From Escherichia coli (GTDB taxonomy: Bacteria > Pseudomonadota > Gammaproteobacteria > Enterobacterales > Enterobacteriaceae): a DNA stretch of 64,000 nucleotides. This document shows positions 61,454 through 61,912 of this stretch, in pieces (the stretch's first letter is position 1; every line of letters starts with the position of its first letter). The DNA lies in assembly GCF_001677475.2 (NCBI RefSeq), contig NZ_CP015229.1. The stretch is one strand, 5' to 3'. The translations under genes and the position numbers were made by a program. The notes beneath the pieces were generated by a model, which saw only the letters and a list, made by a program, of their open reading frames with translations, was not told the DNA's origin and did not search any database.

Positions 61454-61860
61454 TTAACGACCTCAATTCCACGGGATCTGGTGGCGTTTAAAGTGTGTGG
61501 GCATTTTACGGGAAGGTTACATTACTGTAAACATGATTAAATTCATGTTACTTGGATTTGGCTGTCAGGTCACATATGTTGCAAAACATATCAGGTTGAT
61601 TTTAAGAAGCTGTTGCAAAAGGGCGTTATAACAAAAGGGGAGTGCAGAAGGAGTCTGTGCGGGCAATTGGTATAACCAATGCGAAATAAAACAATTATTT
61701 AACAAATAATTATCATTGGAGTGACAAATGGGTGATGAGAAAATAAAGACTCATTAGCTGAATCGTGTAAGAAAAATAGAATTTATAAATGGCATCAATA
61801 ATTTCCAAACGCTAAGCCGCACAAAAGAACAAATATTAATAAGCGATGCTGATGTTTATT
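61454..61860 (-). promoter_or_regulatory. AT-rich cyoABCDE upstream control region (promoter region; individual sites not resolved)
   Basis: About 400 bp non-coding AT-rich DNA upstream of cyoA; the cyo operon is known to be under complex aerobic/anaerobic control. Confidence 0.5.
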
Positions 61861-61881
61861 TAGCCGTAATAATTACGGCTA
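61861..61881 (-). terminator. 21-nt perfect palindrome downstream of ampG; candidate terminator for the yajG-ampG transcript
   Basis: TAGCCGTAATAATTACGGCTA about 30 nt after the ampG stop; no strong U-tract. Confidence 0.3.
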
Positions 61882-61912
61882 GTGATTACTACAGCTAAAT
61901 AATATTTACAGA

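Follow-up and report, generated by a model that had tools for sequence, protein, structure and literature searches.

A perfect palindrome between ampG and cyoA of Escherichia coli appears to be a strain-private variant of a conserved stem-loop in the ampG 3′ untranslated region

Introduction

In the 64-kb stretch of Escherichia coli DNA analyzed in this study (the window), a perfect 21-nt palindrome is located in the spacer between ampG, encoding a muropeptide permease, and cyoABCDE, the cytochrome bo3 operon. The question raised by this locus is whether the palindrome is a site of cyo regulation, the end of the ampG transcript, or an element of another kind. The original prediction, which was made from the sequence of this one genome, regarded the AT-rich spacer of about 460 bp as the complex control region expected for cyo and suggested that the palindrome, which lacks a U-tract, could be a protein-binding site rather than the ampG terminator.

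Two bodies of previous work bear on this question. ArcA sites of cyo have been mapped, and the cyo promoter is repressed 65-fold by ArcA (Park et al., 2013; PMC3798270), while a PdhR box with the sequence AATTGGTATAACCAATG is listed for the cyoA/ampG spacer (PMC7660256). Rho-dependent E. coli transcripts have been found to have sharply defined 3′ ends at steady state, located just 3′ of stable stem-loops without a U-tract, made by PNPase/RNase II trimming and with more C than G in the downstream sequence; Rho dependence is commoner among weakly expressed genes, and over evolution sites of this kind can give way to intrinsic terminators and vice versa (Dar and Sorek, 2018; PMC6061677).

Results

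The ampG-cyoA spacer and its control elements

The genes yajG, ampG, cyoA, and cyoB follow one another on the minus strand of the window in the same order as in the K-12 MG1655 annotation:

63432-63971, minus strand: yajG
61913-63388, minus strand: ampG
61913-61915, minus strand: ampG stop codon (TAA)
61454-61912, minus strand: ampG-cyoA spacer, consisting of the ampG 3′ untranslated region and then the cyoABCDE upstream control region and promoter (open reading frame list and K-12 annotation)
60506-61453, minus strand: cyoA, followed by cyoB

The spacer is 459 bp long with a GC content of 35.1% (51% for the window), in agreement with the size and AT-richness originally described. A CyoA scan of Enterobacterales returned 80 loci, in nearly all of which ampG is located upstream of cyoA; synteny is kept, and the spacer mostly measures 390-670 bp. 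The following control elements were located in the spacer:

61503-61534, minus strand: cyoA core promoter, with the -35 element TTTACA at 61531-61526 and the -10 element TAAAAT at 61508-61503 (promoter scan)
61503-61534 (-38 to -7), minus strand: proximal ArcA site, overlapping the cyoA core promoter (PMC3798270)
61685-61727 (-231 to -189), minus strand: distal ArcA site with four direct repeats, mapped with one mismatch (PMC3798270 supplement)
61665-61681, no strand assigned: PdhR box, an exact match in the window (sequence from PMC7660256)

The cyoA promoter is sigma-70-like (TTTACA-17-TAAAAT), already known, and the sole promoter obtained from the consensus scan. The positions of the ArcA sites place the cyoA start site near 61496, and three ArcA ChIP peaks (PMC3798270) map to about 61474, 61619, and 61698. 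With ArcA sites, a PdhR box, and a sigma-70-like promoter inside it, the spacer as a whole was correctly described as a complex cyo control region. In the cross-genus alignment these elements are conserved blocks, and further conserved DNA blocks at 61754-61768, 61796-61809, and 61817-61834 reach up to the palindrome-bearing hairpin described below, which suggests that the cyo control region may extend beyond -231.

The palindrome is nested in a longer hairpin

The palindrome is present exactly at the position originally given, within a longer inverted repeat (I1):

61861-61881, no strand assigned: perfect 21-nt palindrome TAGCCGTAAT-A-ATTACGGCTA, corresponding to the loop and most of the 3′ arm of the long hairpin
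61856-61902, minus strand: conserved long hairpin of the ampG 3′ untranslated region, 47 nt (inverted repeat I1, minimum-free-energy fold, and covariation in 20 sequences)
61880, minus strand: rare loop variant, A here and C in K-12, which stretches a 17-nt palindrome to 21 nt

Of 3000 dinucleotide-shuffled versions of the spacer, 18 contained an inverted repeat of 10+10 perfectly matched bases separated by no more than 8 nt (0.6% per spacer), and the window contains eight distinct 10+10 repeats that give 15 hits against about 0.7 hits expected. The palindrome exceeds chance, yet it is one of several in the window.

The arms of I1 (61856-61876 and 61882-61902) are 21 nt long, 86% complementary, and 5 nt apart. 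On the minus strand, the 5′ arm runs from 61902 to 61882, beginning 10 nt downstream of the ampG stop codon, and is followed by the loop UAGCC (61881 to 61877) and the 3′ arm (61876 to 61856), so that the sense RNA reads 5′-UUAUUUAGCUGUAGUAAUCAC-UAGCC-GUAAUUAUUACGGCUAAAUAA-3′. It forms 20 pairs, including two G·U pairs, with one C·A mismatch; two of the three DNA mismatches between the arms are G·U pairs in the sense RNA, and the GC content of the stem is 30%. RNAfold picks the long hairpin whichever strand is folded, with energies between -19.8 and -20.6 kcal/mol and a z score of about -4.5, whereas the hairpin formed by the palindrome itself reaches -10.5 kcal/mol. Because the palindrome takes in the loop of the long hairpin together with the greater part of its 3′ arm, the two folds are mutually exclusive, and forcing the palindrome fold in its context changes the energy from -24.3 to -17.4 kcal/mol, a cost of about 7 kcal/mol. 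Both the nesting in a longer imperfect hairpin and the dependence of the perfect symmetry on the single base at 61880 escaped the original prediction.

The perfect palindrome is a rare allele

In the long hairpin the base at 61880 is a loop base, and the C found there in K-12 leaves 17 perfect palindrome bases. Among 5,426 complete E. coli genomes, FDAARGOS_1258 was the only one with an exact match to the 61-nt stretch (61850-61910) that carries the window allele. An exact match to the K-12 version, in which the palindrome is mismatched, was present in 4,701 of them. The element is single-copy, being present at one place per genome in 5,215-5,365 E. coli genomes. The sampled E. coli variants show two differences within the hairpin, namely the A/C difference in the loop and a U→C change that turns a U·G pair into C-G, and one further difference in the spacer outside it; the polymorphisms seen in the hairpin are predicted to be structure-neutral.

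A longer helix is conserved across enterobacterial genera

When the first 100 nt after each ampG stop codon were folded, the same helix register was recovered in at least 11 enterobacterial genera (Escherichia, Salmonella, Citrobacter, Enterobacter, Klebsiella, Leclercia, Superficieibacter, Trabulsiella, Kluyvera, Pluralibacter, and Pseudocitrobacter), located 0-58 nt (mostly 5-20 nt) after the stop codon and sharing the core 5′-CCGUUGUAAUnAC-(loop)-GUAAUUAUAACGG-3′. A gap-free alignment (A2) was built from 20 sequences of at least 11 genera that are closely related to each other; column 1 of one row (L018) is an added padding base that lies outside all pairs. In this alignment, 80.5% of cells are paired in the register of the long hairpin, compared with 30-54% with slid partners, and 12 of the 21 pairs changed on both sides. 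None of these pairing measures was reached by any of 500 shuffles, the shuffle and Wilcoxon statistics on the hairpin being phylogeny-uncorrected, and RNAalifold independently gives the same register. The palindrome register is paired in 55.6% of cells, a value equaled by 86 of 500 shuffles.

Conservation is distributed unevenly along the helix. The outer stem is wholly different between genera and still complementary, as in UUAUUUAGC/GCUAAAUAA, GUUAUUCGCC/GGUGAAUGAC, and GCGAGUCCUGAG/UUUGGGACUCGC, and this covariation with arbitrary sequence points to selection for structure and is not what a protein operator would show. In the inner helix UUGUAAUCAC/GUAAUUAUAA, hardly any variation is seen: its 10-11 pairs are 85-100% identical over at least 11 genera, while the loop and the outer stem vary freely. 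Nineteen of the 20 sequences retain a G·U pair at columns 20-40, a position occupied by C·A or U-A is also fixed, and total stem length differs by genus from about 13 to 25 bp. The hairpin is among the best conserved blocks of an otherwise diverging spacer.

A covariance model built from A2 gave exactly one match per locus, always just after ampG and in the core genera only, and it detected no second copy in the 64-kb window or the 80 related loci. The hairpin is degenerate or remodelled in some lineages, including two Kluyvera loci (L017 and L060) and the loci L025, L028, and L031. More distant genera (Hafnia, Shimwellia, Photorhabdus, and an Enterobacter sp.) have unrelated hairpins at the same position, several of which are canonical terminators composed of an A-tract, a stem, and a U-tract (for example, L013, L030, and L059). 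An Rfam scan of 61000-62400 at E ≤ 10 returned chance hits only (E about 1-9, far below gathering thresholds).

Judged from this comparison, the conserved unit appears to be the long stem-loop of the ampG 3′ untranslated region, kept by compensatory changes, and the perfect palindrome is most probably a strain-private accident on this conserved but ordinary stem-loop. Its origin may be traced to two steps. A U-A→A-U flip at columns 19/41 is seen in Escherichia and is otherwise shared with one lineage only; this compensatory change in the Escherichia lineage would first have given a self-complementary 3′ arm, and the rare loop change from C to A would then have lengthened the self-complementarity to 21 nt.

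Base pairing and folding energy favor the ampG-sense strand

Read on the sense strand, the alignment has more G·U than A·C cells (41 and 19, or 22 and 8 once the two positions with a fixed asymmetry are set aside). In 14 of 19 sequences, folding the sense strand gives a more stable structure than folding the antisense strand (mean difference of 3.5 kcal/mol). Hits of the covariance model reach 48-66 bits in the sense orientation, compared with 22-38 bits in the antisense orientation. A C·A mismatch that is fixed in the alignment would become a G·U pair if read on the antisense strand. These phylogeny-uncorrected comparisons indicate a consistent bias toward an RNA in the sense of ampG, not proof of it.

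Absence of a U-tract and the downstream sequence

The sense-strand tails of 8 nt that follow the long hairpin (ACAUCAGC) and the palindrome (AAUAAACA) each contain a single U, and the corresponding plus-strand tails (GTGATTAC for the palindrome, with three T, and TATTTACA) likewise contain no U-tract. A consensus terminator scan called nothing at the palindrome or hairpin on either strand. The absence of a U-tract from the palindrome, on which the original prediction relied, is therefore confirmed on both strands. With one U in eight positions and no call in the terminator scan, a canonical intrinsic terminator is out.

In the Term-seq tables of Adams et al. (2021), which list dominant ends only, no 3′ end is present between K-12 positions 451530 (in cyoA) and 452393 (in ampG), ampG being weakly expressed. 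The bicyclomycin table of the same study contains no site in the spacer and one inside ampG (K-12 position 453334). The TERMITe and SMRT-Cappable-seq supplements have no entry for ampG, yajG, or cyoA, and full-text literature searches on an ampG-cyoA terminator returned nothing relevant.

Downstream of the hairpin, the sense RNA contains a stretch that resembles a Rho utilization site:

61560-61800, minus strand: C-rich, G-poor rut-like stretch of sense RNA (C/G about 1.4-2.6 in 78-nt windows, mostly at least 2)

Over roughly 60 nt directly following the hairpin, the RNA shows no enrichment in C (C/G 0.8-1.3). When 75 loci were classified by the presence of a terminator or the lack of a U-tract, 16 of the 19 loci with the hairpin had no U-rich tail, a result to be taken qualitatively since the classifier is crude and stems can absorb A/U tracts.

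Discussion

A candidate protective stem-loop at the 3′ end of the yajG-ampG mRNA

The long hairpin is a previously unannotated, ordinary element of a known type. As the best explanation, with a probability of about one half, we propose by analogy with the stem-loops of Dar and Sorek (2018; PMC6061677) that it is a 3′-end-defining, exonuclease-blocking stem-loop of a yajG-ampG mRNA that is terminated further downstream by Rho. Since there is no U-tract, RNA polymerase would pass the hairpin and continue into the spacer. Rho would then load on the untranslated C-rich, G-poor RNA 60-300 nt downstream of the hairpin, the base composition of this RNA being the reason why Rho is invoked, and would free the yajG-ampG transcript ahead of the cyo promoter. 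PNPase and RNase II would trim the transcript back to the base of the hairpin. The outcome, as we infer it from these steps, would be a stabilized ampG mRNA and a cyo promoter under ArcA/FNR control that is insulated from read-through. The hypothesis that protective 3′ stem-loops occur on Rho-dependent transcripts was reportedly raised by Peters et al.

The ampG hairpin shares with the published protective stem-loops (PMC6061677) a stable fold soon after the stop codon, the absence of a U-tract, an excess of C over G downstream, and a weakly expressed gene; in addition, intrinsic terminators take its place in other genera, as predicted by the switch model of that paper. It differs in having a stem of unusual AU content (30% GC) and length (20 bp), an inner helix with the same sequence across genera, and a C-rich zone that lies about 60 nt downstream instead of following immediately. 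Two further observations fit the protective reading less well: the sequence constraint on the inner helix exceeds the needs of a mere exonuclease block, and no end at the hairpin appears in the tables of Adams et al. (2021), although the end of a weakly expressed gene may be missing from a list of dominant ends.

Specific RNA element or non-canonical terminator

The hairpin could alternatively be a specific RNA regulatory element at which RNase III, ProQ, or another protein binding 3′ untranslated regions sets the stability or processing of the ampG mRNA. The invariant inner pairs beside a free loop and outer stem, together with the fixed G·U pair (columns 20-40, 19 of 20 sequences) and the fixed C·A or U-A position, are what such an element might be expected to show, and the E. 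coli stem (20-22 bp) is long enough for a double-strand-specific nuclease such as RNase III. Stem length, however, ranges over about 13 to 25 bp in the genera compared, no Rfam family matches, and no link between either RNase III or ProQ and the ampG 3′ untranslated region was found in accessible literature and datasets. The sampled genera are also closely related, so that the invariance may partly reflect shared ancestry, and we consider this explanation unlikely.

Because the invariance of the inner helix goes beyond passive protection, a specific RNA-protein interaction or a dual role on DNA stays conceivable, and the hairpin may be a dual RNA/DNA element. In a more far-reaching form, which we regard as rather improbable, the nearly invariant inner helix would serve for recognition of a specific sequence, in an undescribed 3′-untranslated regulatory RNA for the fate of the ampG mRNA or for read-through from ampG into the cytochrome bo3 operon, and would have been kept at least since the origin of the core Enterobacteriaceae.

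A weak or non-canonical intrinsic terminator, perhaps aided by NusA/NusG or by the U-rich block AUAUUUGUUCUUUUGUG about 14 nt downstream, is an explanation that we also doubt, about as much as that of a specific RNA element. Like a canonical terminator, the hairpin lies directly downstream of a gene, immediately after the stop codon, and its energy of about -20 kcal/mol is in the terminator range; canonical terminators occupy the same position in other genera, three of the hairpin loci (L006, L009, and L007) are U-rich soon after the stem, and a conserved U-rich block is present at 61817-61842. Unlike a canonical terminator, it has neither a 7-8 nt U-tract nor an upstream A-tract partner, and its stem is AU-rich. 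The single U in the 8 nt after a stem of 30% GC, the negative terminator scan on both strands, the lack of a U-rich tail by the crude classification in 16 of 19 hairpin loci, and the absence of an end there among the dominant ends tabulated by Adams et al. (2021) all argue against termination at this site.

Protein-binding site, repeat family, or relic

A dimeric regulator could bind the inverted repeat, whether the 21-nt palindrome or the longer one, as a far-upstream operator of cyoABCDE, or the repeat could be a site for a nucleoid protein or a cruciform. The inner half-sites GTGATTACAAC and GTAATTATAAC are conserved around a variable center of 5 bp, an arrangement common among operators, and the reverse strand still scores 22-38 bits. 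The hairpin shares its spacer with the mapped ArcA, PdhR, and sigma-70 promoter elements of cyoABCDE, and since conserved blocks up to the hairpin continue to about -340, distance alone leaves room for a role at the DNA level. Nevertheless, the hairpin is located at -360 to -406 from the cyoA start site and 10 nt after the ampG stop codon, overlaps neither the mapped ArcA and PdhR sites nor the core promoter (mapped sites span 61503-61727), and lies at least 130 bp upstream of the most distal of them (-231); the ArcA peaks and the PdhR box are all downstream of it. The palindrome likewise falls outside every mapped K-12 cyo element with which it was compared. The hairpin shows covariation of the structural type, whereas the mapped elements show motif conservation.

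The evidence from other genomes is also unfavorable to a DNA site. The register of the palindrome is not conserved, its perfect form is a rare allele, and no second copy was found in the window or the 80 related loci. What is conserved is the longer helix, with compensatory changes in an outer stem whose arbitrary sequence would be needless for an operator, and both its G·U pairs and its folding energy favor the ampG sense strand. To our knowledge, the inverted repeat has no convincing match among the consensus sequences of known regulators. We therefore regard a protein-binding site as decidedly improbable; for the palindrome itself, both a conserved hairpin and an operator are rejected on the strength of the pair counts across genera and the allele frequency. 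The original suggestion thus holds in so far as the palindrome is not a canonical terminator, and finds no support in its preference for a protein-binding palindrome.

Membership in REP/BIME, ERIC, or another repeat family was rejected because the element is single-copy. It resembles REP/BIME and ERIC elements in being an extragenic imperfect palindrome in a 3′ untranslated region that could block exonucleases, but it occurs at one place per genome, with no further copy in the window or loci. Its sequence is presumably unrelated to the GC-rich REP consensus.

Least probable of all is the absence of any function, the hairpin being a decaying old terminator or a chance AT-rich inverted repeat kept by shared ancestry: its degenerate or remodelled state in L017, L060, L025, L028, and L031 and the lack of an experimental signal in the tables of Adams et al. 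(2021) are outweighed by twelve pairs with compensatory changes that exceed all slid and shuffled controls, by its place among the best conserved spacer blocks, and by the 0.6% chance per spacer of a perfect 10+10 repeat.

Implications

This locus illustrates that the perfect symmetry seen in one genome is a poor indicator of the selected unit, which was reassigned here by comparison across strains and genera. If the ampG hairpin were instead a regulatory RNA, cell-wall recycling would be linked to respiratory-chain expression. If it is confirmed as the ampG 3′ end, as the protective reading predicts, it would supply the missing terminus of the yajG-ampG transcription unit and would account for how the cyo promoter, which ArcA represses strongly, is protected from read-through coming from upstream.

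Hairpins downstream of ampG in other genera

Among the ampG-cyoA loci of other Enterobacterales, those of Serratia spp. (L062, L069, L073 and L076) carry a GC-rich hairpin within the first 45 nt past the ampG stop codon. Because a U-run lies upstream of this hairpin and an A-run downstream (UUUUUGUCGGCC…GGCCGACAAAAAU), it looks, by sequence, like an intrinsic terminator on the antisense strand that faces ampG. In two Kluyvera loci (L017 and L060, about 2038-2094), the conserved hairpin of the ampG 3′ UTR is remodelled, with a decayed inner helix (GUAAUAAUAACGA) and a larger loop closed by a new outer helix, UACGCUGUAG…CUGCAGCGUA. 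Enterobacter sp. 10-1 (L016) has an additional very GC-rich hairpin (GCCGCGCCCUGCGGAGCGCGGCGCGGC, -25 kcal/mol), which is located within 40 nt of the ampG stop codon, ahead of the conserved hairpin, and looks like a REP-type insertion.

Besides the palindrome 3′ of ampG, the 64-kb window contains seven more perfect inverted repeats whose arms are 10 nt or longer. Several of these repeats look like terminators, e.g., AAAAAGGTGCCGTAGCACCTTTTT:

2721-2750, perfect inverted repeat
27363-27386, perfect inverted repeat
29083-29110, perfect inverted repeat
32795-32816, perfect inverted repeat
41032-41062, perfect inverted repeat
52853-52878, perfect inverted repeat
56619-56642, perfect inverted repeat AAAAAGGTGCCGTAGCACCTTTTT

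Conservation and divergence of the ampG-cyoA spacer

In three blocks of the spacer, conservation between genera matches that of the ArcA and PdhR sites. All of them are positioned at about -260 to -340 relative to the start site of cyoA and lie further upstream than any mapped ArcA site:

61817-61834, minus strand, conserved block ATTTGTTCTTTTGTGCGG
61796-61809, minus strand, conserved block TTTGGAAATTATTG
61754-61768, minus strand, conserved block ACACGATTCAGCTAA

The cyo control region also contains an exact 10-nt direct repeat, TGTTGCAAAA, the copies of which (61577-61586 and 61611-61620) are 34 bp apart and near the ArcA ChIP peak at about 61619, the peak without a predicted site.

Most complete E. 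coli genomes show only 95-99% identity to the 561-bp stretch that covers the whole spacer (61400-61960), and identity of at least 99% was found in 2 of 5,424. The nearest genome with the same loop allele of the conserved hairpin, FDAARGOS_1258, still has a different ampG; the window therefore represents an uncommon lineage or an unlisted strain.

Transcript 3′ ends within ampG and cyoA

The putative sRNA 'ampG int' has a very strong ORF-internal 3′ end at K-12 452393, gives a northern blot signal and forms chimeras with CyaR in RIL-seq (Adams et al., 2021). An identical 61-mer surrounds this end in the window (62226-62286). A bicyclomycin-sensitive site has also been reported inside ampG, at K-12 453334 (Adams et al., 2021).

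The sole terminator-like match of the terminator scan lies inside cyoA, 80 nt into the gene on the minus strand, and reads CACTGTATTGCTCAGTG followed by GTTGTAATTC.

About 62236, minus strand, 3′ end of 'ampG int', inside ampG
61384-61400, minus strand, terminator-like hairpin with its 3′ end at 61373, cyoA codons about 18-27

The cyoA match falls at the same place as an ORF-internal Term-seq 3′ end at K-12 451530/451528 (Adams et al., 2021), and the signal-peptide region of cyoA may contain a premature-termination or processing site at 61373.
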